The translations under genes were made by a program, and so were the position numbers. A stretch of DNA of 63,253 bases, counting the filler, from Psammoneis japonica (Eukaryota): assembly GCA_008632985.1 (NCBI GenBank). It is 10 parts of 10 records of this genome, joined end to end, with 100 filler letters (N's around TTAATTAATTAA, not from the genome) between each part and the next. Parts side by side here need not be neighbours in the genome. Positions count along the whole stretch, not along the records: positions 34,240 to 40,804 come from QPGO01000557.1; 9 more parts are not named here. One strand, given 5' to 3'. The notes under the pieces were generated by a model that had not been told where the DNA came from, searched no databases, and worked only from the letters and a program-made list of their open reading frames with translations. Below, one piece after another: positions 2,511-63,253 of this stretch. The first letter of the stretch is position 1. Each line of letters begins with the position of its first letter.

Positions 2511-2581
2511 AATTTTAAGTGCCATTGCACCTTTGCCCAGCAACACCGGCACCGGCCAACCCACACTTCCAGTGCACCCTG
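2511..2581 (-). mobile_element. Probable DNA-transposon terminus (starts CAGGGTGCACTGGAAG on the minus strand)
   Basis: The 71 bp are the reverse complement of 59884-59954 except for one CA/TG dinucleotide. Homology stops exactly at CAGGG, and TA follows at 2582-2583. Confidence 0.65.
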
Positions 2582-4480: not shown

Positions 4481-4610
4481 CTTGAATTCTGCGCAAGAAC
4501 GCACTGACGGAAGCAAACCAACACGATTCCATGTGCAGGAGAACAGCATCTGCACCCCACAAGAAGCTCACGCCTGTCCCCAAGTTCAGTTGGATCCATG
4601 AGACTGCAAT

Positions 4611-6518: not shown

Positions 6519-6519
6519 G

Positions 6520-20699: not shown

Positions 20700-20812
20700 N
20701 NNNNNNNNNNNNNNNNNNNNNNNNNNNNNNNNNNNNNNNNNNNTTAATTAATTAANNNNNNNNNNNNNNNNNNNNNNNNNNNNNNNNNNNNNNNNNNNNG
20801 CCACAGCGCACC

Positions 20813-27604: not shown

Positions 27605-30600
27605 CTGAATGGTTGACAACGTTGCCGTGGCAAGCTCTTTCTGCATTTTCTCATTTTGTGCCATTTGAATGCTTGCCAAAGATTGTTGTTGCATTTTGTC
27701 ACAGCTTGCGAGGTCGATTGATCGTCTCACACGGTCGACTGCAGCTTCAGCAACATTGGCAACATTTTTCACAACGTTTGCACCGCCACAGCACATCTGT
27801 TTGGGAGCCTTGTGCTTCACCCCACTTTGCATCCTTTTGATGCACCTGTTGTGCATGTTAAGATGGATTTGTGCCTTGCTTGATGTCCTTCTTGGGGGCT
27901 TGGTCCAAGCATGATGATGGCATGTCATTTTTGGGTGTGTCAATTTCTCAAAAGTGCATGCCGTGGAAACAAAATGACACAATGGAGCCTCAGGGATGCT
28001 TGTGTTGGTGGCATTTGTCAGGCAGACTTCACATGCTCCAAAGAAGACAATCCTCAATCCTGTGATTTTGTTGTGATTGACTGGGTTTTAGAGTCATTTT
28101 GATGAAAACTCTCACACCTCACAAGCCTTTTTTGTGCATCTCATTCATGCATGCAGGTGTCTGGTCTGTGACGAGCCTTTCTTCTTGCTCTGCAATTGAT
28201 TCTCTTTGTTGTCTGAGGCACAATGTTGTCCACATCATGTGGGGAGATCTTGGCAGTGTGCCAACGAGTCCAGGCTTTGAACTGGGCAAATGGAGAGGTG
28301 GGGGCTTGCCCTGAGATGGGCTCCTTGCCTCCTCTTGGATGCTTGGATGCCACAAACTGCTGGCAACACTTGGGGCCTTAAAACTGGGCAGGGTGTCTCA
28401 GAGCCACCTCTGAAAGCTGTCACAATGAGCATGCTGTGACATGTGACCTCAGTGGACTGGCATTGTGGCTGTGCATGGCTCTGCTCACATTTTCATTTTG
28501 CAAGTCATTTTTTCAGCACAGATGTCTTTGACTGTGAGGGCTTGCAGTTGCCTTTCCATGCCAAAGCTCTCCATGACTTGAGCATTTTGATGTTCTTTGT
28601 TGATGTGGGAAAATTAGATCCTGGAGCTTTCTGCATCCAGTTGGGTCCAGAGAGGAAATGGACAAAATGAGGTGGAGTCGGCTGTCAAAAGTGATGGAGT
28701 TTGGCTCAACATGTTGTTGAAACAGCAGACAATGCATTTGGGCAGATGACGGCATGTTGCTGTTCTTCAATGTGTTTGCTCTGGAGAGGGCTGTGTCTGC
28801 ATCGGAAGCGCTGGTTGTCAGGGCATTGTGCATGTGCGTTGAACGCATTGCACACACTGCGAACACACATTTCCCTCTCTCCTTCTCCTTCTTCTCCTCT
28901 TCTTTTGTTCATAAACTCAGAGCTGTCTGCATGACCAGACACGTGCCTGATGCCAGGCAATTGTCCAGCTGCACTGGTGGCTCTTCACAAACTGTGCAGG
29001 AAATGTGCTGGAGCTTGTGCAGAATCCCATGATGACACAATTCCATTTTGACATCAACAAGCAGAAACACACACAGTTTTCCAGTGTAAATTTGATGGCA
29101 ACACCACAGATGGAATCATTGTCAACGTGCCAATCACTGCATCATTTGAGGGTTTTCAATCACAGGGAATTCCTTGTTTGGCGCTGAATTTCCTCAGACA
29201 AGGAAAGTCAAGGAAACAAGACAAGGAAAAATCAATTGGTGATTCAATGCATGGTTGCAACCATCATGATCATTTCATCTGGCTGTTGATTTGTCCAGAG
29301 CCTGTGGCAGCTGAAACTCCTCTTTTTGTGCACCACTGCACTCAACGAGTGAGGCAGATGCTGCTGGGGTCCACTTTCTCAAGGACAAAAAGATGTGCTT
29401 CCATGATGGTCTCTTCAAGTGCGCTGTCTGCTCCAAGGAAGCCCACAAAAAGCTCAAGTTGGTGTGGCAAATTGTGCAACAAAATAAAAGAGGAAAACTT
29501 CTTTGTTTCCTTCATTCAACAAGCCAATGAGGGGGAAATCAAGATGTGAGCATGAGCAGCGTTTTGGGTCGTGGAGGCTCCTTGCAGCCCCAGATTTCCT
29601 CAGATGAAAGGAAGACATGTCCTGCACTTGTTTGGTGCCAGTTTTGGCCAACACAGTCCTTTCATCTTGCAGCAACATTGTGGTCCTTTCATCTCAGTTG
29701 GTGGCCAGTCCAGAGTGCAGCTGCTGCAGTGCTTCAAGTGGCCAGCCACAATGATGAGAAGCTTGGCTGCTTGTCTCTTTTGTGCAGCACATGGCTCCTT
29801 TCATTTTGCCATCATTTTTTCATGCAGAGCTGGCAGAAATGCCAACTGACTGCAGTGGTGCAGCTGCATGAGCTGGCCCAACGCCAACATCATGAGAGGA
29901 GGCTGGCCAGCAGCACAGCACTGCAAACAAGCACATTTCCTTTGACACCAAACCACAGGAAAATGTGCTCTTGATTGCTTGTCTCTTGTGTTGCAGCAGG
30001 TGGATCCTTTCCTTTTGCAGTCATTTTTTTCACAAAGAGCAGGCTGCAGGGCTGCCAAGCAGCCTGGGAGCTGCTGCTCACAGGTGCAGTGTGTGACAGC
30101 AGAACCTGACACCTGATTGCTGAGAGTCAGCCTTCAATCTGTCAAGCACAAGCTCAAAAATTGAAGTGCACAAGCTGTGACAGCTGAGAGCCTGAGTCTT
30201 GCAGCAAAGCCATGCAAAGAGCCTTTGTGTTTGTCCCACTTGCTTGGGTTGTCTCCTGCCTCTCTTTTCACTGGTGCACTTGCCAAAGAGAAACAGCATG
30301 GCATGCTGCTCATCAGCAGTTTTGGCTGGAAAGGTTTGGCAGCAAACAGAACATTGGCTGTTGCTGTGCAAGTTGTGAGAGTTTAGAGTCTGGGCAGCAG
30401 CACAGCTGCAGGAAGGAGCTTTTGTTGTCCATTTTTGGGTTTTCTCCCACATCTCCTGCCCCATTGACACACTTGTCACAGCAAAATGTTCATGTCATGC
30501 ATTGATGTTTTGGAGGGACAAGGTTTGGTGGCAAGATCAAACATTGGTCATTGCCACATCATGGTTGGTTTGTTGTTTCCATCTTTTGTCACAGCAGCAC

Positions 30601-31050
30601 AAAAATTGCAAAACATCTGGCCATCCTGATTGAGGATTGAATGTGTGGCATTCTCTCCTCTCTTCCTCCTTTTCCTTTTTTTCATGAGCTTGGAGCTGCC
30701 ATGAACTTGGAGCCACCTGCATGACCGGACATGTGCCAAACAACAAATGCCACCAAAAATGCAGATGCTGACATCATGACAGGCAAGCAAAGTGGAAATT
30801 GGTCATTTCATGAGAAAAAATGAAGTGGATTTTTTACTTGTCTTTGCTGCCAGCTTTCTGCGTGCAATCCAAGCACAGTCTGTCCATCACTTCAAAAACA
30901 AGGAAAAGCATGAACAACATGTTTTTCACAGGGCCAATTTGCATGGTGGCATGCATGACCATCACAACACAAGTCATTCAAAAATGTCACAAGAGTCACA
31001 ATTGGCATTTTGCACAAGGAAAAACACCAAATCTTGCAGAAAGTGTGCAC
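27605..31050. other. Unclassified heavily mutated repeat-like DNA (TpA- and CpG-depleted)
   Basis: Very few TA or CG dinucleotides, an excess of TG/CA, and many short Cys/His-rich ORFs with no recognisable domain. Confidence 0.55.
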
Positions 31051-31093
31051 AGTGTCACAAGAGGGTGATCAGAGCTGCCAACCTTTTGGAAAC

Positions 31094-31179
31094 TCAGTTG
31101 AAACATCATCCAATCAAAGGTGTTTTGATTTGCATGGTTTGATCAGATGACACCTTTGATTGGATGAATTTTCAATTGA
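31094..31179. repeat. Inverted repeat / hairpin
   Basis: TCATCCAATCAAAGGTGT (31106-31123) pairs perfectly with ACACCTTTGATTGGATGA (31150-31167). An imperfect outer stem extends it. Confidence 0.85.
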
Positions 31180-31273
31180 TTTCCCGAGAAGTTGACATTC
31201 AAATGCAGATGGGCAGGCAGACTGACAACAATTGTTTCTGGTGCTCTTCCGCATGATTTCCATGCAATGACTC

Positions 31274-34139
31274 TGTCAGAGTGCCAAAAAGCAAGAGCAA
31301 CAAGCCAGAGAGCTCCCCACAAACTGGTGACAGTGGATGACACATGTGCCAGTGAGAAAGAGTGAGAGAAGATCTCAAAGAGATCATCTCGACTGTCTAA
31401 AAACATCTGACCATCATCCGCAAGCAGTCTGACCATGTGCGGGGTTGGCTGACACCCTCCCCTGATCCAGCATGTCCAACAAAGAGACTGCAGATCACAG
31501 ACAGAATGGAAAAGGGAAGGCAAGAAGCAACCAAAGGCAACACAAAACAAACCAGATGACTCCTGAAAGACTCCTGAAAGAGTCAGACAGGGAAAGAGCA
31601 ACTCTGCAGATGCTGGGGGACATGTGGCAGCAGGACTCAATGGAAGTGTCCCATCATCCAACAAGCATGGCAGGCATGTGGCATTGAGCCAAGAGCCTTG
31701 GTGAGGACGTTGCTTGGGTTGATGATGCCAGGGATGTGTTGAGTGACAACATGACCAGCCTCCTTCCAATCTTGAAGGGCAAGCCACTCAAGGTTGATGT
31801 GTTGGGAGTGTTCAGTGGGGACCCAGTTGTTGATGAATGAGTGTGGCCATGTTGGGGAAGCCAAGTTCATGAAGTGCAGATTGGAGACACAGGACCTGTT
31901 TGGAAGCAGCTCCAGCAGAATGAAATTTGGCCTTGGTGGAGCTGGTGGCTGTGATGGTCTGCATCTTGCAGCAATGAGAGACAGCAGCACATGCCAACAC
32001 ACATGCATGCCCTGTTGTGGTTTGGTGGTTGCAAAGGTCATTGCCATGTGCTGCATCCAGGAAAGCTTGCAATTGAGCAGGCAAGTCCGGGGTGGGAATG
32101 AAGGCAACATGACACCCGGTGCAAGGCACTTGAAAGGGTGCATTGGAAGGGCAGGAACTCTTGTGCAGGATTCTTGCAGTTGATGTCCCCCAGTGCTTCA
32201 TTCAATGGAGATGCTTTGCCACACCTTTCAAAGCAATGTAATGTGCCAGGGCTGGATGAGAAGCAAACTTTGAAAGCGCTGCAATGGCACACCCGATGTT
32301 CAGCTGGCAAACCATGCATGCATGCCACAATTGACCAAGGATGTTGCAATGCACAAAACCATGGAGTTTGGCCAACTCCTGATGCTCAGGGGTCCCTTCC
32401 TGTGGGCCTGCATCAGAGCAGAGGTGAGGAATGGAATCCACAGGTGTTGGGGTGACGTGGAAGTCAGAGCCCAATTTAGCCACAACAGGGTGGAGCCAAC
32501 CATGTGACATGAGAACACAGTCAAGGCAGCTGTGGCATGCAATCAATGTTGAGTCATCATGCTGATGCACATTCACACCATTGAACTCAGCACACAGGCC
32601 CAAATGCTTGAACGGGATCTCATCTTTGCTGGGAACACACAGGGCCTCACCAATCAAATCACAAATCTTGGTGGCAATTGATTTTTGGGACATGCAATCA
32701 CAAAATCATGAACCTGGCAGAGAAGGAGAACAAGTTTGCCTTCAAAAGCGTCAGCACAAATGCACTTGAAGTGTGCTGCATTCCAAAGCAGTGGCTTTGC
32801 ATCTGCCAACACACTGTTGAAGTGGGTTTCCCACATGACACCCAATTCCGGATGTCCCTGCAGTGCATGAAGGACAGGGAGTGCCGTTGACCAGTCAAGG
32901 TCTGCGCAAAAGTGGTCCTTGCACCAAGAGGCACTGGCTTTGTCTGTTTGGATGTAGAGCAGAGTTGAAGGGCAGGGAGAGTGAGCGCAAGCATCCTGGG
33001 CATCTTTGCAATGCACTTGGCAGGCCATGGAAGCCAAGAGAGCAAAGAACAGCGCCATCTCATTGGTTGTCACACACAAGAAGAGTGGGTGGACTGGAGA
33101 CAATGTGGAGCAGGGGCAGCTTGTGGTTTTCAATCACAACAACAGCATGATTAAATGTGCCACCCATCTTGACATCATGTTGCCAGTGGGAGCGAAGGAC
33201 AACAGCAACTTTTGGGTGGGGAACAGGTTTTCCAAACACACCCAGAGTGCAAAAATGATCCAACTGGTGCTTGAATTCACCATCTCTTCATTGGGAGCAC
33301 ATGGGGAGTTTCTTGAGTCAGCGCCGGGCAAAGATGTCCAGTTCTTGTTCCTCTGGGGTCACTGCATGAGAGGAGAGAGCAAAAACGTTGAAGGTTCCAG
33401 ACTCTGGAGCAATTGCAGGTGAGAACTTGGGGTTCACATCATCTGCACCAGGAACCACAATTCTGCAATGGAGCATGCATCACCTGATGTCATCTGCACC
33501 AGGAACCACAATTCTGCAATGAAGCGTGCATCACCTGATGTCAATTGTGGAACATGCTCCTCTTCACCTTTGGCAGGAGGAGAAAAAATGTCATGTTCAA
33601 TCGGAGCACGTTGGAGATGTTTGGAGTCAAGATGGCAATCAGGAGCAAATGCAATTTCAAATTCCGGATTGTCTGCATCATGGTTGAGGCATTGGATTTC
33701 AGCAATGACTTGGCCCTGATTGAACACATCAATGCCTGCTGATTTGTCTTGTGGGCATCAAGCATGTGTGCAACCACATCATCACATTCTTCAGCAAAAG
33801 ATGGATTGGAGGTCTTGAGGGATTTGTCAAGAATGTTGTTTGAGTCAGGGAGGATGAGTGGGTGGGAAAAACATTTCCTGTTGATCAATTGGCCACAGAT
33901 GGTCACACCCTGACCAGAGCAAAGTTGATGTTTTGCCACATGCTTGCATGTCATGAAACTTGAGCAAACAACCCACCGTGTGGTCCTTCTTTGGGCCGCC
34001 AGTGCAGACAGCAAAAGCACATTTGTCAATGAGGGCAGACTGGAGTTGTGGGTTGCAGCAAGCACACACCAAAACGCACCCAGCTTCATCTGCCACAGGG
34101 ATTGCAAGACATCCAAAGCCATGGGGAACAGCAGTGTTG
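31274..34139 (-). mobile_element. Highly degenerate Copia RT-RNase H with PPT and a possible short 3' LTR
   Basis: HALQGHPELGVMWE, LLLCQVHDF (consensus RQVDDF) and HIPGIINPSNVLTKALG...MMGH. The PPT GGGGAGGG (31462-31455) is followed by TGTCA. Confidence 0.8.
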
Positions 34140-34561: not shown

Positions 34562-34799
34562 TGTTGTAATTTATCCTTCTGGTGACTATTTCAGAGCCAC
34601 CTCAGTCCTCTAAGGTCTGATCCTGAGGCTAAAATAGACAAGCTTGTTATCACAATGCTTTCTAAGAGTTAAAAGAGAATAATGACTGCTTTCATCGGCA
34701 GCTTCAGTGCCTCACGTAGAGCACATGAGCGCTGGCGCATGCGTCTTCTTCGCGCCATCTAATTTCGGTGTTTGAACTTTTAATTCACCATTTCCAACA
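34562..34799 (-). repeat. 3' LTR (238 bp)
   Basis: Aligns without gaps to 39959-40196 with 8 mismatched positions. Confidence 0.97.
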
Positions 34800-37700
34800 C
34801 ACTCCTGCTGACCAACGACACGATTCTTGCCATTTCCAAATTTGACCATCTCAGGCACTTGGATGTTCATGATGGCTTGACGATCAGAAATGAACTTTTT
34901 ACCAACCACTGGTTTGGTCATGCAATCTGCCATCATCTTGTCTGTTGGGCAGAACTTAATCTCAAGTTCTCCTCGCTTGATGAGGTCAGTGATGTAAAAA
35001 TGCTTGATGTTGAAATGCCTCGTGCGTTTGCCCGAGCTGGCCTTTCCATTTTGTTCTAGTTTCATGCAACTTTGATTGTCTCGATGCATGATGTTGCGCT
35101 CGACTTCAAAACCTTGAGCTTCAACAAAACGCTTGGTCCAAAGGACCTTTTCCAAAACATCGTCTCCTGCGATGATCTCTGCTTCCGTAGAACTCCTGGT
35201 GTTGATCTTCTGCTTCGTGCTGACTGATGCAATGACACCTTTTCCAAGGGTCATGGTAGAACCTGTGTGACTTTTACAGTCCGGATGGACTGCAAATGCG
35301 GCATCCGTGTGCCACTCGATGACAACTTTGTCTCCAGCCGACATGACTGCGACATCAAGCTGGGTTGTCTTGAGGAAATTCATGAGCCTCACCAGCTTTG
35401 GCCAATCTGATTCGCTCAGATCCTTGACCCTGGTAGAGAGAGAAGCAATGCCAGGCTGAATGTCCTGTCTGGCTCTCTTGCACACAAACATGCCCTTCAT
35501 CACAAAAGTGCAAAATGCTTGAGCATGCTTGAGATCTAATTTCTTGGCTGTCTCATCCACCTTGTTGAGCTTCTCGCTCCACGGGCAATCCACGTCACCC
35601 GACAATTCTTCTGGGAATTTCTTGAAGAATTCCTTGACCATTTCTTGCACATGAAGCACCATGTCAACTTGCAATGCTCCTGGAATGGAGCAATCTAGAG
35701 TTATGGCTAGACAGTCATGCCTCTTTCCACGCGTGACTTTGACCTTTCCGATCTCATCCGCACAAGTTTTGTCCAACCAAATCTTGAATTCATCGTTGAC
35801 CTTGCTGTCAACATGGCTAGACTTCAAATCGTCCACATGCCATGTCACCGTGTGTTGTTTTCCATTCACGATGTGGTTGGCGACACATGGATCATGAGGA
35901 CCAATCTCAAATCCGATTCCTTCGATGTCTCTGCGGAACTTCTTGCAACAAAGAATGGAAGACACCAGCATTCCGTAGAGTGCCTTCAACATTTCAACGT
36001 AGAGAACCTTGTGTTTGCCTTCGTGCACGACGCAGTCCTGGCAAGTGTCTGGATCCAATTCCAGCAACATGTCCACCATCCTTCCACTGATCTTCATGAT
36101 GATCTTTTCATCCTTGACCTCGATGTCCGTTTGCACAAATGCATTTGGAATGTCTGCCATCATAACGTCTCTGCCTTGCTTGGCATCAATCACTCCTGCA
36201 ATGAGAACAGATTCTGTTGATGCTGTCGGACTGGCGGTTTCATCTCGGTCCATGCACTCTCGTTGCGTGCTTCCGTTTGCACACAACCTTGACTTGATTC
36301 GTCCATCTCTCTTCTCTGTGAGAAACATGAGGCTCTCCATGGCTCTCTTCCTCTCCAGTGGAGTCATGTCCTTGATGCAAATGGGTTTGAAAACCACTCT
36401 ATCATGGATTTGCTTCAGCTCTGACACTGCCGACTTGTGGCCTTCTTCTCCAAACTTCTGGAGTCCTCGTGCCAAGCTGCAAGTCTGAATAAATTGGTGT
36501 GCTTCTTCATCAGTGGAAATCGTGCTAACCTTTTTGTTCCACTGGCACATTGTCATGGCCATGATTCTGGCCGTCTCTAAGCTGCATGCTTCTTCTTGTG
36601 AATGGGCTTGAGTCTGCAGATGGCATTGGCAGTCTCCCAATCTAACTGGAGGTTTGAGAGTCCTTCCTGCCCTGGATGTAGCAACAGGCTCTTCTTGGAC
36701 ACTTTCTTTGGTTTCACTCTGCTCCTCTCCAGATTCGTCATCAGATTCCAGGTCTTTCATTTCGTCGATGATCTCTTGCACTTCCAGAGAGTGTTCCTTC
36801 TCTTGTTCCAGCCTCTGTTGTTCATCAATGTGGTCAATCATGTCATCGATTTCTTGTGAGATTCCGCTGCCGTCTGATGGTTGAGAACCAACTTCGTCAT
36901 TGTCTCCGAGATGCTCATCATTGGAGGTTTCTTCTTGAGTCTCGTCTTGTTGTTCACTGATGTAGCTGGCTTCTTCATCCAATTCTTGTTCCCGAACTAT
37001 GTCTTGCAGCTCTTCTTGACTAACTCTGTCGCAGTCTCCCCAGCCTAGCTCTTCTTCCTCATCATCTTCAGTTTCAATGTCTTCTTCTAGATCACAATCT
37101 TTGTCTTCAAATTGATCTTCATCACAATCCACTCCTGCAAGCCAAGCACCGTCGCACAAAACAGTTCCAGTGCGGTTCTGAATCTTGAGACCATTGGGCA
37201 TCTTGTTCATTTCAGCCAAATGATGAACCTGCTTTATGATGGCGGGAGTGATGGGCACAGGGGTGACCTTGCGACGAGTGATCTTCTTGCCGGTTTGCAA
37301 GTGCAGCAACTCATGTCCAATCTGGTTGCTGTCGGTGGGGCGCAAACAAATGCAATCCAAGGTCCGTGACTCTTGAGTGTTCTTGGGGTCCGGGTCGTTG
37401 TGAGCTTGCACACAAGTGCCGAACGTGATCTTGCAGCTCTTGTCATAGTCTAGATTCTTTTGATGGAGAATCATTCTTGGACTGCAATGTTTGGAAACGC
37501 CGTGCTTGGCTGGAAAACAATTGAGCTTCTTAGCAGCTTCGGTGACCATGACTTCAACCATGAGTTTTGGTAGATGCTTGAATGGCAGCTGATGATGGAC
37601 TGCCCTGGCACGTTCTTGAATGACTCGGTTGTTTCTTTCGGCTTCTGGGACATGCTCCTGAGCATTTGTGCAGTTCACCTTGAGATCAAACTTGTCTTCT

Positions 37701-39856
37701 AGTGCATTCCCAATGGGCCTGAATTCGTTGTCGCAATGAATGCGTGTGACCTTCAAATCGGCCTTGTTGTAGACTCGCAGCACATCTTCCAGAGCTTCTT
37801 GATGAGTTGGTTGGGTCAAGTCCTTGAGCGGTTGTGCCGTGTGATAAAAAATGTTTCGTGACACTGTGGTGAGGAATGGCAATCCATTCACCTTGAGGCC
37901 ATCCAGGCAAAGAGTGACCTTGTGCTGTGCTGCAATGAGCTCCTTCGGGATCTCTGTGCAGTCTTCTACAACTGGGTCTGGCTTCTGCCTTGTTGCCTTG
38001 CCTTTTCGACTTCCAATGTCTGGTCCAAAAATCTTCTCGGCCAAATCTACGTCCTCCATTGTGATGGGATTGTTCTTGATGCTGTTCATGCGAATGATGG
38101 CCTTCAGATCGTTCACGGTTGGGTTTCCCAACGCTTGCAATGGTTCCCCAGCCCTCTTGGCTTTCTTGAACTGTCGTGGAGTGTAGAACTTCTTGTTCTC
38201 TTCCACACTCTGCACAAATTGGAGCTGAGCTCCAGTGTCATTAATCTTGGGCTTGTAAACGTGCAGCCCTTTTCCGTCCTCCTCGAACCCAACCTTCTTG
38301 TTGGGGAGATGAACGGTGAATGCGTTGTCTTGCTTAGAATCACTTGTGATTCTGTGCTTCTTCTTCATGTCAGAGCAAGCAAAAATGTTGGTGATTGCAT
38401 CTGGGTTAAACCAAGTCTCACCAAACCCTGGCACTGTGGCCTTGTGTGTCGTGACCAGGACTCCGCCATTGGTGTGCAAACGCATGGCTTCATCCGACGG
38501 ACGGATGTCTGCAACGAGCTTCTCATTGCAGAAGATTGTGGTTGTGGACTGGTTGTCCAATAAAATCCAGTCTCTCATGCTGCCAGATTGATCCTGGTAG
38601 AGAGATGCATCGATGTGCGTGCCAGCCCATCCTGAAACAGCAGATTTTGTTCCAGTGGATTCTTTGGCAGAAGAGTTGGCTGCACTGGCATCGTCACTTG
38701 CTTGAGCGTTGCTTGCTTCTTGCTTGGCTTTGGCCTTGTTGATGGCCCATTCTGCTTGAGGTTTTCCTTTCCTTTCCCAGCAATTTTTGGAATTGTGTCC
38801 AGCCTTGCCACAGCAGCAACACTTGCCTTCTAACTGAGCGAAGGACAGCGCAATTTCTTGGTTTTCTTCTTGTTTCTTGGAGTCAGAGTTGTTGTTTCGA
38901 TTGTTCCTGTTACGGTGGTTGTCAGGCTGACCAACGTAGTCAAAAGTGTGGTTGCTCAACACCGTGTTGGCTTCCGTAACAGACTTGGGATGTTGGTCGT
39001 TCTTGAGGGACTGCTGAGTGTTCAATCCTGTTAGAATTGATCCGCACTTGCACTGATCTGCATTCTCCAAGTGCATGTAACCCATCAATTGGCTGAATGC
39101 CTTTTCTTGACACTTCTTGATGGCATCCGCATTGTGCTCGTCACATTCTGACATGCCTTGCACTGCCTTGGTGAGGACAATTGGTCCTCCAATGTGAGAC
39201 TTCATGATGTCCCTTGCAACCCTGAATCTCTTGGTGCAATCTTGGAGACTCTCCTTCTCCTTCTGCTTGGTTTCTAGCACTGCTCTCATTGAATCTGAGA
39301 TGATGGCCATGTCATGCCTGTGCTCTTGGCAGTTCAATGCATGCTCCTTAATGGCCTTGAGCAACTCGACAGGATCGTTTTCAATTTTGGCTTGGAAGTC
39401 GGTTCTTGCTTGAATCTTGTTCTTCATGGCCTTGGAGCATCTCTCCCAGAGCAAAGCACAAGCCTTGACAAGGTTGTTCTCATGAGTTTGGGTCCTCTTA
39501 ATGTGAGCATCAAATTCTGTCTTGAACTCAATTTCATGCTGTTTGTTCAATGGCACGTCCACCTTGTCATCTCCAGTCAAGCTGACCTGCAAAGTCGGCT
39601 TCTTAGAACTCATGTCACATGGAGTGAAAGTGTTGAGTGCAGTTGCAATGTCATTTCCAAACTCATGAGTCTTCTTGATGTAGTTGATGATGAACTCAGC
39701 AGCAATCTGAAAATCAGATGCTTGCTTGGCACTTCCAACATGATGGACATGATCATTGATGCCCTTGTTGCTTTGCTTGCCACTCTTGTTGCCCCTTCCT
39801 GAGGGTCCTCTTCCTTGGCTTCTATTGCCATTTCTGCCTTTGCCTCTTCCACTCAT
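34712..39856 (-). CDS. Copia gag-pol polyprotein, open but heavily Tyr-to-Cys/His substituted
   Basis: Zn knuckle CCCCGKAGHNSKNC, protease WILLDNQST, integrase IHCDNEF and HVPEAERNNR, RT ADIPNAFVQ and TWHVDD, RNase H WHTDAAFAVH and SSTEAE. The first ATG is at 39856. Confidence 0.93.
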   Translation of the reverse strand: MSGRGKGRNGNRSQGRGPSGRGNKSGKQSNKGINDHVHHVGSAKQASDFQIAAEFIINYIKKTHEFGNDIATALNTFTPCDMSSKKPTLQVSLTGDDKVDVPLNKQHEIEFKTEFDAHIKRTQTHENNLVKACALLWERCSKAMKNKIQARTDFQAKIENDPVELLKAIKEHALNCQEHRHDMAIISDSMRAVLETKQKEKESLQDCTKRFRVARDIMKSHIGGPIVLTKAVQGMSECDEHNADAIKKCQEKAFSQLMGYMHLENADQCKCGSILTGLNTQQSLKNDQHPKSVTEANTVLSNHTFDYVGQPDNHRNRNNRNNNSDSKKQEENQEIALSFAQLEGKCCCCGKAGHNSKNCWERKGKPQAEWAINKAKAKQEASNAQASDDASAANSSAKESTGTKSAVSGWAGTHIDASLYQDQSGSMRDWILLDNQSTTTIFCNEKLVADIRPSDEAMRLHTNGGVLVTTHKATVPGFGETWFNPDAITNIFACSDMKKKHRITSDSKQDNAFTVHLPNKKVGFEEDGKGLHVYKPKINDTGAQLQFVQSVEENKKFYTPRQFKKAKRAGEPLQALGNPTVNDLKAIIRMNSIKNNPITMEDVDLAEKIFGPDIGSRKGKATRQKPDPVVEDCTEIPKELIAAQHKVTLCLDGLKVNGLPFLTTVSRNIFYHTAQPLKDLTQPTHQEALEDVLRVYNKADLKVTRIHCDNEFRPIGNALEDKFDLKVNCTNAQEHVPEAERNNRVIQERARAVHHQLPFKHLPKLMVEVMVTEAAKKLNCFPAKHGVSKHCSPRMILHQKNLDYDKSCKITFGTCVQAHNDPDPKNTQESRTLDCICLRPTDSNQIGHELLHLQTGKKITRRKVTPVPITPAIIKQVHHLAEMNKMPNGLKIQNRTGTVLCDGAWLAGVDCDEDQFEDKDCDLEEDIETEDDEEEELGWGDCDRVSQEELQDIVREQELDEEASYISEQQDETQEETSNDEHLGDNDEVGSQPSDGSGISQEIDDMIDHIDEQQRLEQEKEHSLEVQEIIDEMKDLESDDESGEEQSETKESVQEEPVATSRAGRTLKPPVRLGDCQCHLQTQAHSQEEACSLETARIMAMTMCQWNKKVSTISTDEEAHQFIQTCSLARGLQKFGEEGHKSAVSELKQIHDRVVFKPICIKDMTPLERKRAMESLMFLTEKRDGRIKSRLCANGSTQRECMDRDETASPTASTESVLIAGVIDAKQGRDVMMADIPNAFVQTDIEVKDEKIIMKISGRMVDMLLELDPDTCQDCVVHEGKHKVLYVEMLKALYGMLVSSILCCKKFRRDIEGIGFEIGPHDPCVANHIVNGKQHTVTWHVDDLKSSHVDSKVNDEFKIWLDKTCADEIGKVKVTRGKRHDCLAITLDCSIPGALQVDMVLHVQEMVKEFFKKFPEELSGDVDCPWSEKLNKVDETAKKLDLKHAQAFCTFVMKGMFVCKRARQDIQPGIASLSTRVKDLSESDWPKLVRLMNFLKTTQLDVAVMSAGDKVVIEWHTDAAFAVHPDCKSHTGSTMTLGKGVIASVSTKQKINTRSSTEAEIIAGDDVLEKVLWTKRFVEAQGFEVERNIMHRDNQSCMKLEQNGKASSGKRTRHFNIKHFYITDLIKRGELEIKFCPTDKMMADCMTKPVVGKKFISDRQAIMNIQVPEMVKFGNGKNRVVGQQECVGNGELKVQTPKLDGAKKTHAPALMCST

Positions 39857-39958
39857 GACAAAAAGGCAAAGCAGCAAAACATCTCACACACCGTGTGGAT
39901 GACTCTTTTCTTTCTCACTTTCTTTTCACAGCTCTCAGCTGGATTGTTCTCTTTCAAC

Positions 39959-40196
39959 TGTTGTAATTTATCCTTCTGGCAACCATTTCAGAGCCACCTC
40001 AGTCCTCTAAGGTCTGATCCTGAGGCTAAAATAGACAAGCTTGTCATCACAATGCTTTCTAAGAGTCAAAAGAGAATGATGACTGCTTTCATCGGCAGTT
40101 TCAGTGCCTCACGTAGAGCACATGAGCACTGGCGCATGCGTCTTCTTCGCGCCATCTAATTTCGGTGTTTGAACTTTTAATTCACCATTTCCAACA
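39959..40196 (-). repeat. 5' LTR (238 bp)
   Basis: Partner of 34562-34799. Confidence 0.97.
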
Positions 40197-41423
40197 GAAG
40201 GTGATGCGTGGTTTTATTCGACAGAGAAACGAGCCATGGCAATTGTGATGGCTTACATTGAGTCTTGCAGATGCAAGGCAGTTTATAACACAGAAACATG
40301 TGACTCATTTGCCTCATCTGCTAAGCCTGTGCAACACATTTAGATGTTAAAGTCGGGGCAAATTATGCACAATGCCAAGTCTCCAAAAACAGCACAAGAG
40401 TGCAAGCCCAAAAGAAGAATTGGCTTTGCAACTTGTCATGGGAGTGTAGAGCTTGTTTTTCTGGGGCATCATGTCTCTGTTGTTTTCATGGAGTGGACAT
40501 TCGCTGGTGTTGTTGCCGCCAACGTGCGAGTTCGCCTTGACAACATGTTGCACTGTATTCTGAGAGTTTGGAATGAAAAAACAACTTGCACTTGCATTGT
40601 TCTGTCACAACAGAAATGTGTGAGCTGTCCCTGGCCCTTTTGGAGAAATGGGGCAAGTGAAAGAGGAGCTACAGAAAGACACGGACGACGCCATTTTGAT
40701 GGATTGTCGTCAGGTGGTGTGTCGAGAGGAGTCGTGATGGAGTGCCGCTTTGTGTTTTTGCACTGCGTCCATGTGGGAATGTACGTGCTTGGCTCTCGTG
40801 TAGTNNNNNNNNNNNNNNNNNNNNNNNNNNNNNNNNNNNNNNNNNNNNTTAATTAATTAANNNNNNNNNNNNNNNNNNNNNNNNNNNNNNNNNNNNNNNN
40901 NNNNTTCTTTCGGGGTGTTCTGTCAGACTTTTGAATTGGCACATACACACATTAGAGGCACAAGCAAATTTAATGATATGTTGAAGCCTCAGAGACCCAC
41001 ATAAATTTATGTTCTATGTAGACCGCGTAGATTGTGTACCGGCGGAAAATCCACCGCCTGTCAACTCATCAGCAGTAATTCTACGCAAATTCTACTTACA
41101 CCTCACACACGCACACACGCCTGCACAGTCTAATAACCACGCACTACGTGCGTGAGAATTCTTCATCACTGTGCAGAAGACTCCACTGTCATCCCATGTA
41201 AGCAGAGTAGTCGCAGTACAGGGCTCGCTGATCTAATTGAAATCGCGCAGCGCACACATCAAGTTGCGCGCAGACTTTGGCGGCCACAGAAGGAGGAAAG
41301 GTGGTGCTGGGTGGGCGGGCACACGATTGATGGAAAGGGTGATGGGATGATGTGGGCAAGGAGGGGGGCAGCAGAGCAAGGTGACAGGCTTGTTGCTGTG
41401 GTGTGGCAAATGTTGAGTGTTGG

Positions 41424-46348: not shown

Positions 46349-47849
46349 TCGTGCCCTATGTATGTACTAAGCGCTGAAAAAGAAGATGTGTTATGACTTT
46401 GTCGTTGTGAAAATTATGAGCTAGTTTAGAGTAGAGAAAATGGGATCGTGCGAATAGGGAATCTTGCCAAATCCCTATTCGTTCGCATTTGGATCGTATC
46501 AAATCGATCGTGCGTTCGCATTATGGATCGTGCGAATCAAGCCATCACGCGCTATGCACGAGTGATGTCATCGTGTGGAATCACGCTACCATCGTGGGCC
46601 AGACGACGGGCTAGTGTGCTTCACACGGATGCTCTCTTAGCATCCTTCTGGAATTGCCTAAGACCTAGAGCCACGCCCTCCTGTGGTCGTGCTTCCCAGG
46701 TACGTGTTAACAANNNNNNNNNNNNNNNNNNNNNNNNNNNNNNNNNNNNNNNNNNNNTTAATTAATTAANNNNNNNNNNNNNNNNNNNNNNNNNNNNNNN
46801 NNNNNNNNNNNNNAAGGACCAATGTGATGGATCTGCACACCTCCTGTGCAGCCCTCCAGTCACCCAAAGTCACTCTCTTTTCATTGTGTGACACCAGCAT
46901 AAACAGGAGGGAGAGGCTGGCACAGCACATGCAAAACTTGGCAACATCAAATCATCCTTTCCACTGCAGTGCACCCCCAGTGAGGAGCTTTTTGCTGCTG
47001 AAACAAAAATGTTGCTGCAGCAAGAGTTGGTCCAGCAGTGCAGGGTCAGCTGACTCAAGCAGGGCTTGGGCAAAAATGTGAGCTTTGTGCCTCAAAGCTG
47101 TGGCAATCTCCTTTGCCCCTTTTGTCACAGTGCTGCCTCTGCACATTTCTTTGTGGAGGGTTGTTCTCCTTTGGTTTTGGCCAATTGCATGTGGGTGTGA
47201 CATGTGCAGCTGGCAAAATGTGGGAACAGCTGCAGAACGTGGATTTTGCAGGTTTGAAAAGCTGGTGGCTCACTCTGCGTGTGCTGTGTGTGAGTCAAAT
47301 TTTCTTCTGTGGGCTTGTTGCATGATTTGGAGGGAGCCCTCATGCTTCTCGCATGCAGCTGGCAACTGGCAACATGGGAGAACAGCTGCAGAATGTGGGT
47401 TTTGCAGGTTTGAAAAGCTGGCATTTCACTTCATCTGGGACGCCAATAATCTGGGTCTGACAGTCTGCCACAATCTGGGCATTTGTTGACTTCAATCCCA
47501 GATTATTGTCAACTTATGAGCCAAGTCTTTCCCCAAAGATAACATGAGAACTACATGAGTTTATAAGCTTCTAAAGCCTGAATCGCTTCCCACTTTTAAG
47601 TGTGATCATTCTTTGCACACAATGGTGACCTACACCCCAATTGACATTTGTGGTTTCTTGTTCCTTAAACACATTTGTTTCCACTTATAATCCACACTCC
47701 TTGTCTGCCATTTCATCCTACATTTCATCTCTTTGCCATGTTGTTTTCAAATCCAAATGTCCAACTGCCACACGTTTTTGTATCTAAACCGCTTTGCAGA
47801 AAGTTTTTTTTTCATTTTTCCAGATTTTATCGTTTGCTGCAATTTACTT

Positions 47850-48986
47850 TTACACACCAGTTTGGTTGGTTGCCATGGCAGCAATTGCTCCCGCTCCGTT
47901 GCCGGCTGCCACTGCCTGCAATGGCAGGTCCTCACCCATCGGCACTGCCCATCCTTCCTCTCTCTCCTTTCTCTTTTCCTCTCTTTTGCGTTTCTTGTTT
48001 TCCTCCCTAGACAAGTTTGTCTTCTCTTGCCTTCTCTCCTTGAACCATGCACCAAATCCATGGTTGTTCTCTCTGTCTTTCACCACCCACTGACACAGAT
48101 CATTGCACTTCTTGATCCCATCCTTGCTCCATCCTTGGTTCCTCTTCACCGATTCCCCCGCTGCCTGTGCTGTGCACTTTGCAGGAGCAGCATCTTGCAC
48201 CGTCAGCTTCCTTCTCCTTGCAATGTTGTCTTCCTTTTCCAACTTCTCTGCCGTGTCCATCACCTTGTTGCAGTGGTTCAAGTGCACTGGCAGAGCAAAT
48301 GCCTCCGACAAAATGGAAAGCCACTCTTGGAGCATGTTGGTTGTGCTTCTACCAAACTGTGCTTGTCCCACCACCATTGGCACCACAGTTTCCAAGAACC
48401 ATGCACATGTGTCCTTGTCAGCTCTTCCCTTTGTCAAATCTTTGTACTCCACCAGTGATCCCTCTAAAGCAGCAACTGCACAGATAAAATCAAAGGCAGT
48501 GACACTCATCCCATTGGACAATCTCCTCCAACACAATTGAAGGCACGCACACAGCTGCTCACCTGTCATTCTCCTCCTAATGTTGTCCTGCACATTGTTC
48601 CTCTTGCGGTTGAGTTTGGTTCTGAACACCTCTTTGCATTCTTCCCAGAACGCCTCCGGCAAAGACACCATGCTCCTCAACTCCTGCAGAACTGTTTTCA
48701 TGCAATCTTCTCCTGCGGCCAGTTCTCGGTCGAAGATTGTGAACTGGCAATGTGGCCAAACACTTTCATTGATTGCCTTTGTCAGCATTGATCCTGTCAA
48801 TTTCTTGCCCACCGCTGGTGCATGATCCAACACAAGACATCCCTCCATGGGAGTCACCACAGAACTTGAATCCCCCCCATGCACTGGAATCTGTTTAATT
48901 CCCCATGTTCGTTTCTTTGTGCATTGAACAAGGCTGCCACCGCAGGACTCATGGTGACTTTGCGTGACACCACACAGGTAAATCAC
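47850..48986 (-). pseudogene. Repeat-associated hypothetical protein (SEAFAL...GWSKDG motif), with a probable GT-AG intron near 48563-48478
   Basis: 378-aa open frame with LSEAFAL..LN, KCT and GWSKDGIKKCNDLC..V.KDR. I associate this pattern with DNA-transposon accessory ORFs from recall, not from a search. The DNA is TpA-depleted. Confidence 0.5.
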
Positions 48987-49635
48987 AGGTCGTTAGTTCA
49001 CCAGCAACTCTTTGTCATGCCCTTTCTCAACCTGACTTACCACTCGACGTTTCACTTCCTCCCTCTGTCACTCCTGTTACAACTGTCTCCTCCATCTTTT
49101 TGTCCTTCCCAATGGCTGCTCCTTGTTTTGAACTTCCATCCTTTCCTGCTGATTTATGAACAGGTGATGTGCGAAATGAAGGCACTTTGCATGTGATTTT
49201 CTCTGTTTTGTCATTGCTCGCGTATCCTCTCTTGATTCAAACAGGTGTTTGTATCAATTTTGAGTGCTCATTTCCAACCCCATGTTTGAATTTCTATCAA
49301 TCTTCCACTGTTTTGAATTGTGCACCTTTGTGAGCCAATCCAATCCCTCAATGAAGATCACAATGTGTTTTTAAATCAATGTCAAAAACAACATGTCTTT
49401 TGTTCTTGTCTTTGTGCATGCATTGTGCCTGTTTCCTGACACAACATCAGTTTCATTTGGTTTAAAAAATTGTGTCAAACCCCCTGTTCTTTCACACAAA
49501 TCTGTGTCTCTCACTGCCCTTGTTTATCCAATCATGTCTTAATCGATCATTCCCTCAACTTCCCTGATGCCATCTCTCTCCAACTCCTCTCTGTGTCACC
49601 CAAACTGATCCAGTCCCCCTTTTAATGTCGCATGT

Positions 49636-50544
49636 GTGTGTGCACATGGGAACGCATCCATCCACAATTCCACACATTCTCTTTTGCTCCTCCAATGGTG
49701 CCAAAGCATCACATTGTCACTAAGATGTGGTTGTTGTGAATCGTTCCCATCACAGGAATGCGCGTTCCCTGCATTGCAGCAATGTGCCACCCCCATCGAT
49801 GATCAAATGGGTCGTGTTGCTGGTGGCGGTGTGGAATCACATGGTGGTGCAGCAAGCTTTGCCTTCTCCGATGAGGTTTTTTGTCACCCCGTTCTCTTTG
49901 CTGCTCACACTCGAAGCCCTTTTAACATCATCGACATTGGTGGTGGTTGTGCCGGTTTTGCAATTGCCTGTTGTTTGCTTGTTCCTTCCTGCAATGCCTG
50001 CAGCATTGAGTCACACCATCCTTGTCATGATTTGGGCTCTGAGTGGTGTCGTGCTGTCTGGCCCAACTTGCCCGGTTGTTGTCCTACCCTGATCAATCAG
50101 GATTTCCTCTCTGAAGATGATTCAGTTCACCGTTTGTACCATCAGAATAACACAAAGATTTTCTTCAACAATTTCAATGGGTGGATGCTTTTTGATGACA
50201 TTGGGACACAGAACCAACTCGAGGAGACACTGTCCAACAAGTGTCCTGAAGGTGCCATCGTCATTTCACTGGACGTGATGTTTTGTGGGCACACCCACAA
50301 ATGGAGGCATGCAGCATTTTTTGTTCCTGCCTGTCCAGACAATCTATCATGGGGAGGCGGTGTCAACAGGCACCTGCTTCACAAGTGCACCAAGAAAAGA
50401 GATGGCACTGTCGAGCCAAGGCATTCCACTAGGAACAACCCAGGGACTGACATCAAACGAAAGTTCAAGCCTTCCAAAAGTTGGCAGCTTGGTGCTGTCC
50501 TTTTCCTTAACTTTTTTCTATGCAAGCAATGCAATGTCAATTAG
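49636..50544 (+). pseudogene. DOT1-like class I SAM-dependent methyltransferase ORF, hypermutated
   Basis: Ordered motifs ESHGGAASF, IIDIGGG, SIE, QDFLSED, TKIFFNNF and QLEE...EGAIVIS parallel the DOT1 motifs YGE, DLGSG, GVE, GDFLSEE, VIFVNNF and EGGRIVS. Confidence 0.65.
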
Positions 50545-52729
50545 CCATTTACACCAATTTACTTCCTGCCTTTACCAGCTTACAACTTAGCTAGTTTTGC
50601 AGTCCAACAAATTCTTGTTCGTGCGCTTGCCATGTCAAAATTATGTGCCAGACATGCCATGTTCCTTCAATCCAAATTGGTTTTGTCAGGCAAAGCATGG
50701 TGCAGCATTCTTGCATCAAAATCAAATGCAGTGCCTGCTTCTCCCACCAGCAATTGTTTTTCCAAACCCAACCCAACCAAGAGTCTTTTGTGTTCTTTCT
50801 CATTCAACGTTACCTGGCAACCATCCAGCCTTGTCTTGATGGCACCATTGTCCTCCGTTGTGTCATCAAGGAACAGAAACACTGTGAAAATTTTGTTTCC
50901 TGGAAACAATTCTGTTTCCATGTAATCGCAATGAATTTCCCCCTTTGACCAGAAGTTGGACCTTGAACTTGAAGCAGGAGCATTTGCTGCCATGTGCCTG
51001 CTTGTCTCTTTCTGTCTAAATCATCAGCCATGGGAAAGCCAGGAATTAAGTCCAACATTTTTTCTGCCAACTCAATGCCCTCCGCCTTGTCCTTTTTGTT
51101 AATGGCAAACTCTCTGACAAAACGGTGTCCTTCCTTTTCTTGTTTGCTGCTTGGTGCCTTGTTTGCAAGAGCAGCAATTTGTTTGAGCAAGGGTTGTGGG
51201 GTTTTGAATTTTTGCAAGTGGCCTTTTTTCCCTTCCTGATGCAAACTTTCTTTGCACCTGGCCGCCTTCCTCTTGACGACATGTGATTTCACTTCATGCA
51301 GGTGGGTTGGCAACTTGCCATGTTTCCGACATGAGGTTGTCGGCCAATGTGCAAATTTCCTGCATCCATCAACAGAACACTTTCACACCATTCTCTGAAC
51401 ATGCGGAATTCTGCCAAATCAAATGGGACTTAGTCTGTTCATCATGCAGAACGCACCCAATTCAGCGAACGACCTCGGCTGTTTCTTTCCCATGCAATCT
51501 GTGTTGCACACGGCATCTGTCGGGTGCATGGCAGACATTTCTTTTGTAAACAGTCCCATGTGTTATGATCTTTGACCATCTTTTTTCCTTGGTGTTTTCA
51601 TTCAATTGGTGATCCTGGCTGCCTCAAAGCTTAGACACACCTTTGCTTCCACACTGTCATGTCATGGTTGTGGTGTGTCCCTTTGTTTTCAACACCGCCC
51701 CTGACACAAAGGAACAGTCACTGTCCCATGTTCATTCCGCACTCATTGAGATTATGGTGTACAATGAACATGCGCAAATCACACATTTGTCTGTCAACCA
51801 ATCATTTTGGTGTCAATTTTTTATGAATTCACACAATGAGAGCATCTCATGCATTTGTCTTGCAACAAATCAATTTGGCAGCACTTTTTTATAAATGCAA
51901 TGAACAAAAGCCTTTACATTGTTGTGATGTGTTGTCAATCTCCCGCAGCAAACAGCATCCTCACAATTCTGGTCCAATCACTGATCAACGAATGTTGGTC
52001 AGTTGTCGGACACTGTTGGGGCATCGTCATCTCTCTTTTCCATGATGTGCCATTCCCTGTGTGAAACAACAACCTCATCATGATCCCACCCTGTAGAATG
52101 CTTGCCAACCCGTTGCAAAACGGCTGCCTCACCTGTTGTGCCATGTTGCCGCAATGCAACCAACGAATCTCATTTTCCTCCAACACATCGCACTTCTTTC
52201 CTCTGATGTCCTTCCACCCAACACAACCTGGTGTTGCTTTGCCACTGCCATGTCACACAAAAGCATCGACAACTGTTCCATGTGGCCTTTGCCCCNNNNN
52301 NNNNNNNNNNNNNNNNNNNNNNNNNNNNNNNNNNNNNNNTTAATTAATTAANNNNNNNNNNNNNNNNNNNNNNNNNNNNNNNNNNNNNNNNNNNNAACGA
52401 CGACGACGTTTTGGTACAAACACGTTGTTGTTTCCTGGCATTTAACGTGAAACCACTGACAGGGAAACTCGACTCTGATTTGAAACGAGCATACAAGTTA
52501 AGTTGTAGACTACAGTAGCATGCACGCCACACGCCAGCTATCACCGGATGCTACTGTAGCTCATACCGGTAGTGGAGGTCTGTTGATGGTTCCGTTTAGT
52601 TCATTTTGCCGTTCTGCGATCTGCTATGGGTCCCAACGCCATGCTTCCACGTGTAATCACAAACCCCATTTTTTACTTTTTACCAAAATGGGTCGGAAGC
52701 AGAGGGTTGCGTTAGGCACAGAGCTGTGA

Positions 52730-62800: not shown

Positions 62801-63253
62801 CAGCGGCTTGTCTGGCCACCCTGGCTCACAGCAGTGTTGAGGAAGTGCCTGCAAATCACATGTGTCTTGCTGGTTGGACAGAATTTGAGGATTGTTTGGC
62901 CATCCTTTGGGCCCCATCTTGACATTGTCTCCGGGTTGAGCTGCCCTCCTCCCCGCTGATCTTGCTCGGAGGCGGTGTGTCTGCCCAAGCTGAGCCCACA
63001 GCAGACAAGGTGCACACCCCCAGAAAACTGGTTTCTGTGGCAAAACTTTGGGCAGTGACATGATGACAGCTTTTTGCACATTTTTTGATGACCAAACTGC
63101 TGGTGGAGAGAGTGCAAGTCAGCAGCTGCAAGTTGTTAAAGTGTGTGAAATTCTTGGTGGCCAAACAAGACAAGACCTGGTTTCTAAAAAATGCGTCCAC
63201 AACTTGAGCACACCTGCCCTCGACTGCAATCTGCACTCTTTGTTCCAGACAAC
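59884..63253 (+). mobile_element. Probable DNA transposon relic starting at the CAGGGTG terminus, with a TpA/CpG-depleted interior
   Basis: The first 71 bp match 2511-2581 in reverse complement. No transposase motif is recognisable in the interior. Confidence 0.5.

Follow-up and report, generated by a model that had tools for sequence, protein, structure and literature searches.

The question raised by the locus at 34562..40196 of the window (the whole stretch of DNA analysed, 63,253 bases of Psammoneis japonica consisting of ten contigs, C1-C10, of 5.3-6.9 kb each, joined by N44-TTAATTAATTAA-N44 spacers) is why a complete Ty1/copia-type retrotransposon is so poor in the dinucleotide TpA (TA) and so rich in TpG and CpA (TG and CA). 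A first-pass annotation of this DNA had described few TA and abundant TG/CA in transposon DNA of most contigs next to normal host genes, and had proposed that the adenines of TpA are mutated by a process acting on chromosomal DNA. The present analysis, based on the ten contigs, public protein collections and contigs of public runs, shows that the element is a bona fide insertion and that the footprint is real and very strong, and makes it probable that it was left by a chromosomal, TpA-restricted A:T to G:C mutator acting on repeat DNA. The element with its long terminal repeats (LTRs) consists of the following parts (O/E, observed/expected ratio of TpA; R, purine; Y, pyrimidine; RT, reverse transcriptase):

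34562..40196, minus strand: complete Ty1/copia-type LTR retrotransposon, TpA-hypermutated, 5635 nt
34562..34799, minus strand: 3' LTR, 13 TA, O/E 0.68, no TA of the RTAY type
39959..40196, minus strand: 5' LTR, 9 TA, O/E 0.48
34715..39883, minus strand: gag-protease-integrase-RT-RNase H polyprotein, one open frame of 1723 codons

As is characteristic of Ty1/copia elements, there are two LTRs with TG..CA termini (direct repeats of 238 nt, 97% alike), a target duplication of 5 bp (GAAGG) and a single polyprotein in which RVT_2 lies downstream of the integrase. The RVT_2 match (residues 1191-1371 of 1723) scores 30.3 bits, just under the cut-off of 31.6, and the integrase domain obtained no Pfam score, while over its full length the polyprotein is 54% identical to Copia polyproteins, the named homologues coming from Fragilaria and Nitzschia. 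Its RT catalytic box reads HVDD and, judging from the sequence, the protein is very likely non-functional. Loss of a stop codon was considered as the reason why the frame enters the 3' LTR and was rejected, several homologues sharing the C-terminal ...GQQECVG extension.

Among the public runs, X1 accounted for 46% of the sampled words, X2 for four pieces only and X3 for none placed on the stretch. One contig of X2 joins position 34554 to 40195 and the 5640 nt left out equal the element plus its duplication, so that this contig represents the empty-site form of the flank. The flanks of the insertion (34240-34561 and 40197-40804) are high-copy in X1 and this, together with the insertion-free form in a run of the same sample, indicates that the insertion lies within another repeat. 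At 34453-34463, where TA is found in the window, CA or TG is seen in other copies of the flank.

A diatom host is shown by the ferredoxin-NADP reductase (FNR) gene on the minus strand of contig 3 (18943-19890), which shares 94% identity with that of Pseudo-nitzschia multistriata and whose named matches are all diatoms. Sharp-edged tracts in seven of the ten contigs have a TpA O/E of 0.03-0.22 versus 0.64 in gene-bearing DNA, deficits relative to the host level that correspond to Poisson P values of 1e-39 to 1e-108. By contig the ratio is 0.03 in both C1 (17 TA in 6933 nt) and C5 (14 TA in 6535 nt), 0.09 in C10, 0.13 in C9, 0.19 in C8 and 0.22 in C6, which holds the Copia element, and among the gene-bearing contigs 0.52 in C2, 0.63 in C3, 0.63 in C7 and 0.44 in C4. 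The O/E of TG and CA is 1.5-2.0 in the TA-poor contigs versus 1.1-1.3 in the others. When dinucleotide ratios were pooled and strand-symmetrised over three classes (host-like DNA, moderate tracts and heavy tracts), the values were 0.64, 0.17 and 0.04 for TA, 1.00, 0.39 and 0.31 for CG and 1.19, 1.60 and 1.73 for TG/CA; TA is, besides CG, the sole depleted dinucleotide, AA/TT, AG/CT, GA/TC and the others barely shifting.

The base composition described in the first-pass annotation is thus confirmed, as are its count of 13 Tyr in the Copia open reading frame (ORF; 1721 aa) and the eight peptides quoted from the window, all of which are present at the expected places. Its 17 Tyr in 305 aa for FNR became, on recounting from stop to stop, 18 Tyr in 316 aa. 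The statement that transposon DNA is affected in most contigs stands as regards the TA-poor part; recognisable transposon proteins were found only in C4 and C6, i.e. the footprint is seen on repeats and a transposon identity is established for two of the seven TA-poor contigs only. Normal genes keep their TA, as seen in a host gene with a PCO_ADO (cysteine/cysteamine dioxygenase) domain at 17028-17741 (minus strand), where 13 Tyr are found in 238 codons.

When the ten contigs were compared with each other by blastn almost no shared families appeared, and polarisation of the changes therefore rests on protein homologues and two repeat pairs. The Copia ORF was aligned with 41 full-length homologues taken from the best 60 of 120 listed, and columns with at least 80% agreement were regarded as conserved. 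In the 36 conserved Tyr columns the ORF has Cys in 18, His in 10, Tyr in 6, Leu in 1 and Phe in 1, while every other conserved residue type is retained at 83-100%, from which follows a direction of TA to TG/CA on both strands, as had been claimed earlier (A:T to G:C, both strands). The Tyr content is 2.95-5% (median 3.95) in all 120 listed homologues versus 0.75% here, and a native Cys or His at these positions, which would have spoken against the first-pass reading, was not found among these distant relatives. In total 79 of the 607 conserved columns differ; by codon, 35 of these can be explained by one TA to TG (25) or TA to CA (10) change, 6 by a CpG change and 7 by other transitions, only 2 of them A:T to G:C outside TpA, whereas 20 are transversions and 11 require at least two changes. 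The transversions and the multiple changes probably reflect ordinary divergence, considering that the relatives are only 54-66% identical in sequence.

The same comparison could be made for a second element, using 40 homologues of its own:

20801..22603, plus strand: second Copia fragment (RT region), truncated by the contig end and partly hypermutated, RVT_2 98.7 bits

Its 16 conserved Tyr columns read Tyr 5, His 5, Cys 4, Phe 1 and Leu 1, and TA-type changes account for 21 of the 41 differing conserved columns; Ile to Val (6), Met to Val (2) and Val to Ala (3) are also seen. A host-like stretch of 655 nt (21874-22528) lies inside this ORF and has kept all four of its conserved Tyr, while upstream of it (residues 44-271) nine out of ten have been changed. 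The tracts are consequently not the same as the elements, since a spared stretch occurs within a Copia ORF and since satellite and unclassifiable DNA are TA-free as well.

The mutated adenines are, in agreement with the first-pass annotation, restricted to TpA: the O/E of ApA/TpT is 1.10 in host DNA and 1.20 and 1.30 in the tracts, ApG/CpT is not raised, and TC/GA has values of 1.13 for host DNA and of 1.11 and 0.98 for the tracts. The Cys to His proportion of 18:10 in the Copia ORF (binomial P 0.18) is consistent with both strands being hit, and TG and CA are balanced and randomly interspersed in 12 out of 12 tracts tested (runs z -1.2 to +1.2). Strand-coordinated stretches are the mark of enzymes working along one exposed strand; no such runs were found, either of Cys versus His in the Copia ORF or of TG versus CA in the 12 tracts.

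The bases flanking TA were grouped into RTAY, mixed and YTAR contexts with palindromes halved. The surviving TA sites number 289, 511 and 151, respectively, in host DNA, 6, 74 and 49 in moderate tracts and 3, 28 and 39 in heavy tracts, showing that the loss of TA is greatest in RTAY, less in mixed contexts and least in YTAR. ATAT is not found in 33.8 kb of tracts, and TTAA, CTAG and CTAA/TTAG retain 59-66% of their host density in the moderate tracts. All 13 surviving Tyr codons of the Copia ORF are preceded by a pyrimidine; mutated Tyr codons amount to 14/14 of the purine-preceded and 23/31 of the pyrimidine-preceded ones (P 0.044).

CpG, with an O/E of 0.06-0.6 across the tracts, is lost along with TA, yet the two losses are uncoupled, as C1 (TA 0.03, CpG 0.63) and C5 (TA 0.03, CpG 0.15) illustrate. 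The 1723-codon frame is still open because TA to TG/CA changes create no new in-frame stop, the only stop they can give being TGA from TAA, itself already a stop. The heavy tracts contain 108 TAA and TAG versus 1122 TGA, and since TAA and TAG stops are missing long false ORFs arise in TA-free DNA, ORFs of at least 110 codons occurring at 3.5 per kb in heavy tracts versus 1.4 per kb in host DNA.

Changes that took place after integration can be identified in the repeat pairs. The two LTRs of the Copia element differ at eight positions: four single sites with TA versus CA/TG, at which the 5' LTR carries CA/TG relative to the 3' LTR, one site (two positions) that is CA in the 5' LTR and TG in the 3' LTR, one CpG-type change and one other C/T change. 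At the CA-versus-TG site both copies must have been hit, in opposite directions. This corresponds to 6 hits in 28 TA site-copies versus 1 in ~400 other positions (Fisher P 3e-7), and as LTRs are identical at insertion the TA-type differences arose afterwards. The other pair belongs to contig 7:

41430..46348, plus strand: unit of 4.9 kb between direct repeats of ~334 nt, TA almost normal, early hits

Its repeats (41430-41763 and 46004-46348) are 92.8% alike and differ by an 11-nt indel and 13 substitutions, of which 6 are TA-type, 5 CpG-type and 2 transversions. Five of the six TA-type changes are in the right copy and those five are all RTAY, the hits falling on 5/14 RTAY sites versus 1/12 others (P 0.17). 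The unit is AT-rich, has no ORF longer than 137 codons and is possibly a non-autonomous LTR element on which the mutator has had very little effect. That the members of repeat pairs differ at TA sites means that the mutator acts on integrated DNA; the earlier claim of a process on chromosomal DNA is upheld by the post-insertion differences of the LTR pair, by the TA-free satellite and unclassifiable repeats and by tract edges inside an ORF.

The contigs of run X1 gave 1527 pieces on the stretch, 375 at a minimum of 99% identity, 561 at 95-99% and 591 at 90-95%, with no indels listed. Up to 13 distinct X1 contigs cover one place, which makes the Copia family large and multi-copy. The run lists 156 variable places, 142 of them transitions; among 40 of 165 rows these are mostly TA/TG/CA/CG interchanges, with four TG-versus-CA doubles. 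Independent mutation of every copy to ~80% would be expected to leave a TA/TG/CA polymorphism at almost all of the lost sites. From this part of the table it is tentatively concluded that most losses date back to a progenitor which had already been edited and yet continued to be copied, perhaps because intact relatives mobilised it in trans.

Several of the observations weigh against a mutator acting on the chromosomal copies. TA is near normal in the LTRs (O/E 0.68 and 0.48) versus 0.17 in the interior of the element, and conserved Tyr codons have been lost in 28/34 cases versus 6 hits in 28 LTR TA site-copies (P 2e-6); a part of this gap is explained by context, RTAY sites being absent from the LTRs. 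In the 40 of 165 rows, other copies have TA where the copy in the window has TG at only three single sites, which in combination with the LTR-interior gap suggests that most of the loss predates this insertion, and an edited lineage that kept being copied fits poorly with an efficient transposon-killing defence. The choice of strand in mixed contexts is inconsistent between Tyr codons and LTRs: among pyrimidine-preceded Tyr codons an A followed by a pyrimidine is favoured 14:5, while the three LTR hits with a choice went the opposite way. The baseline for the contexts is gene-rich host DNA and not unmutated transposon DNA, and the single usable run is possibly the assembly's own source, making its support for the consensus partial and not independent.

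It could be argued that there has been no mutation process, either because the family is natively TA-poor through selection against TA or because of a sequencing or assembly artefact at modified bases, given that close family copies in X1 share the TA-poor state and that one run, possibly the assembly's own, covers the stretch. This is very improbable in view of the 28 of 36 highly conserved Tyr that have been replaced, the HVDD of the RT box, the 2.95-5% Tyr in the 120 listed homologues, the differences at TA sites between members of repeat pairs and the sharp edges with normal adjacent genes within the same contigs; moreover 375 of 1527 contig pieces match at 99% or above with no indels listed, and a miscall would have to be consistent in giving TG for TA at certain sites and CA for TA at others. 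Slightly less improbable, though still very unlikely, is an editing outside the chromosome, by ADAR-like A-to-I conversion of retrotransposon RNA or by deamination of cDNA during retrotransposition, after which the copies would arrive already mutated. ADARs are not known outside animals. The interior that is much more depleted than the LTRs and the losses that seem common to family copies would agree with such editing, as would the preference of ADAR for U before the edited A, as cited in a preprint (10.64898/2026.01.13.699255); both strands are, however, hit about equally without strand-coordinated runs, the LTRs of one insertion differ by TA-type changes and these are hence post-integration, the 23-nt satellite and unclassifiable repeats are TA-free too and an ORF is cut through by tract edges.

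Error-prone repair synthesis of the polymerase-eta type (WA motif) or GC-biased gene conversion among heterochromatic repeats would likewise place A:T to G:C changes in repeats, and the CpG-poor tracts fit repair of deaminated 5-methylcytosine (5mC). The WA motif of polymerase eta includes AA, and the unchanged ApA/TpT (1.10 in host DNA, 1.20 and 1.30 in tracts) and ApG/CpT speak against this polymerase, which the first-pass annotation had put forward as a candidate; biased gene conversion has no dinucleotide rule, and the conserved columns show 35 TA-type changes versus 2 A:T to G:C outside TpA, leaving little room for either. A better, although still unlikely, alternative keeps the same targeting and alters the chemistry: the thymine of TpA in silenced DNA would be modified, for instance to 5-hydroxymethyluracil (5hmU) by a TET/JBP-type enzyme, and misread or misrepaired as cytosine, the primary change being T to C. 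A hit on the A of one strand and a hit on the T of the other leave the same sequence. Dinoflagellates, which also belong to SAR, are described as making 5hmU by a TET/JBP enzyme and silencing transposons with it, and older work is quoted according to which 5hmU replaces thymine preferentially in TA and TC (PMC11572971). TC is not depleted here (TC/GA O/E 1.13 in host DNA versus 1.11 and 0.98 in tracts), and a search of the literature for 5hmU in diatoms gave dinoflagellate papers only. Furthermore, 5hmU opposite A is not known to be strongly mutagenic.

In the preferred reading of a chromosomal, TpA-restricted mutator, repeat DNA would be exposed in the chromosome to an activity changing A:T to G:C almost only at TpA, a hit on the adenine of one strand giving TpG and a hit on that of the other strand CpA. 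In the Copia coding region about four fifths of the conserved Tyr codons would thereby have been lost, TAY becoming TGY (Cys) or CAY (His). The mutator would act on single sites of either strand, with RTAY changed most rapidly and YTAR most slowly, and would be confined to sharply bounded, often CpG-poor tracts, approaching saturation in old repeats; from their CpG poverty the tracts are probably methylated, silent chromatin. As regards the chemistry the favoured candidate, put forward at somewhat less than even probability, is a TadA/ADAT2-like deaminase that would convert adenine in DNA to hypoxanthine. In the natural tRNA substrate of TadA/ADAT the target adenine likewise follows a U, U33 preceding A34.

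The TA-poor tracts, with boundaries from three-state segmentation, are given below without strand and with TA versus TG+CA counts:

6..6932: heavy TA-free tract, whole of contig 1, 17 TA versus 1342 TG+CA, CpG O/E 0.63, including a 23-nt satellite and an integrase-like remnant
12272..13828: heavy TA-free tract, end of contig 2, 6 TA versus 315 TG+CA
20802-21872 and 22533-24310: TA-poor parts of contig 4, with the host-like stretch 21874-22528 between them
27606..34138: heavy TA-free, CpG-poor tract, whole of contig 5, 14 TA versus 1505 TG+CA, CpG O/E 0.15
34786..40801: moderate TA-poor tract, contig 6, 78 TA versus 1148 TG+CA, CpG O/E 0.49
46820..52290: TA-poor tracts of contig 8, heavy in 46820-47444 and moderate in 47853-52290, with a host-like island of 405 nt between them
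52745..57268: heavy TA-free tract, contig 9, 4.5 kb, 8 TA versus 1062 TG+CA, CpG O/E 0.14
57955..63250: TA-poor tracts of contig 10, heavy-moderate-heavy

In contig 2 the edge is sharp at 12268/12272, the adjoining gene-like DNA (7039-12268) having 223 TA versus 754 TG+CA, and the tract of contig 9 is flanked on both sides by host-like DNA (52412-52731 with 19 TA and 57310-57851 with 22 TA). Contig 2 (7034-13837) also has, at ~8470-10750, a diverged internal tandem duplication (71-74% identity over 1-1.9 kb) that is TA-normal; thus not every repeated sequence is TA-depleted. Within the heavy tracts of contig 10 an island at 58981-61691, especially 58954-59953, shows near-normal CpG (15 per 250 nt) and only partial loss of TA, as would be expected if old repeat DNA, already saturated, had received a younger insertion. 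Short TA-free patches were found in otherwise normal gene-bearing contigs at 14481-14787 (307 nt, 1 TA) and 41238-41433 (196 nt, 0 TA versus 46 TG+CA), and these may be small old repeat fragments.

Outside the recognised transposon proteins none of the 101 ORFs of at least 110 aa in TA-poor tracts, including contig 5, was above the Pfam cut-off, and the longest, a 462-aa ORF in contig 10 (58466-59851), had no relative among 1.84 billion representatives. In contig 1 the peptide STPCSPWQNLAEASIRELK at 1592-1612 (plus strand), earlier quoted as PCSPWQN, looks like a remnant of an integrase/transposase core with Tyr changed to Cys, while the 243-codon frame around it is without a Pfam match. The 23-nt satellite of the same contig occupies 2953-4409 (main array, ~64 copies), 1830-2091 (inverted) and 6547-6932, and its units vary chiefly at CpG (ACGA/ACAA/ATGA) and at CATG/CACA/CACG. 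Pfam matches to "Grass antifreeze beta roll" are false, being translations of this satellite. The satellite was also rejected as a polarised data set, as its variable columns (CG/TG/CA) look CpG-derived and an ancestral TA is not inferable from them.

When compared with known systems, the footprint resembles repeat-induced point mutation (RIP) of Neurospora and other fungi in that dinucleotide-specific transitions ruin chromosomal repeats and leave sharp-edged, skewed tracts. RIP runs from C:G to T:A, chiefly CpA to TpA, and enriches TpA; here the direction is the opposite, TpA being destroyed (0.03-0.22) while CpA/TpG and G+C rise. Decay of CpG by deamination of 5mC in methylated transposons likewise yields TpG/CpA and is seen in these tracts too, yet it consumes CpG whereas TpA is consumed here, and the two depletions are uncoupled. 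Enzymatic deamination hypermutating mobile elements would be shared with two animal systems, ADAR (double-stranded RNA), which prefers U before the target A, and APOBEC3 (cDNA). Their substrates are RNA or single-stranded cDNA, and the changes they leave are clustered and strand-biased, unlike the pattern found here, where both strands are hit without clustering, after integration and in non-retroelement DNA also. The 5hmU of dinoflagellates likewise occurs in a SAR lineage, is directed to transposons and reportedly prefers the thymine of TA, but is an epigenetic mark and not a reported mutator, and it also prefers TC, which is undepleted here (PMC11572971).

The closest counterpart is found in the rhizarian chlorarachniophyte Bigelowiella natans, for which Mettrop et al. 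(2026 preprint, bioRxiv 10.64898/2026.01.13.699255) describe a TpA-only hypermutation of integrated giant-virus and virophage DNA. In mutation-accumulation lines 231 of 302 nuclear mutations fell in giant-virus and virophage regions, and 230 of these 231 were A to G or T to C, all at TpA; the regional rate was ~6e-7 versus 3.5e-10 elsewhere, about 1000 times the background. The same authors find reverse-transcriptase and DDE domains enriched among TA-poor coding sequences, describe the giant-virus region as single-copy and propose an ADAT2-like adenosine deaminase as the candidate enzyme. The first-pass statement that no such system had been described is thereby overtaken, while its diatom part stands: a full-text literature search, with most subscription journals outside its coverage, gave no report of TpA hypermutation in a diatom. 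A TpA-only A:T to G:C mutator aimed at mobile DNA has thus been described once before, in this one preprint, and the diatom footprint places the process in a second major SAR lineage, so that the enzyme could be sought by comparing lineages bearing the footprint.

New in the present work are the polarised test on two Copia elements, the order of flanking bases, the lack of strand-coordinated runs in the ORF and tracts examined, the edges inside an ORF and a hint that edited lineages kept spreading. The words "diatom", "flanking", "trinucleotide" and "tetranucleotide" are absent from the text of the preprint (10.64898/2026.01.13.699255), and the order of RTAY before YTAR and the random interspersion of TG and CA are therefore additions. 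They give a finer specificity to be matched with candidate enzymes, namely RTAY over YTAR, either strand and no processive runs. The footprint bears on transposon control in diatoms, on the evolution of GC content in repeats and on genome annotation (false ORFs), and builders of base editors would be interested in a natural enzyme that edits the adenine of one particular dinucleotide in double-stranded DNA. It is conceivable, and held here as a working idea with somewhat less than even support, that an ancient enzymatic system for editing double-stranded DNA of the chromosomes at TpA is common to diatoms and chlorarachniophytes. It would deaminate adenine or modify thymine, prefer RTAY and treat either strand independently, and its target would be silent or foreign chromatin and not repeats in themselves. 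If true, this would be a widespread eukaryotic counterpart of RIP with opposite chemistry and a source of a natural TpA-specific DNA base editor.

Set beside the B. natans process, the diatom footprint agrees in showing only transitions from A:T to G:C, restricted to TpA and with TpG and CpA as products, in being confined to foreign or mobile DNA with long-term TpA depletion and CpA/TpG enrichment, and in affecting particular regions with the rest normal, here with sharp edges against gene-bearing DNA of O/E 0.64. The two differ in host, a stramenopile diatom instead of a rhizarian, in targets, which here are LTR retrotransposons, a satellite and unclassified repeats and in B. natans integrated viral DNA, and in extent, the depletion being near saturation here (O/E 0.03) versus 0.45 for the B. 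natans viral region. While the process was seen de novo in B. natans, it is in the diatom deduced from its footprint, and that footprint, as read from sequence, has the same signature as this very recently described process.

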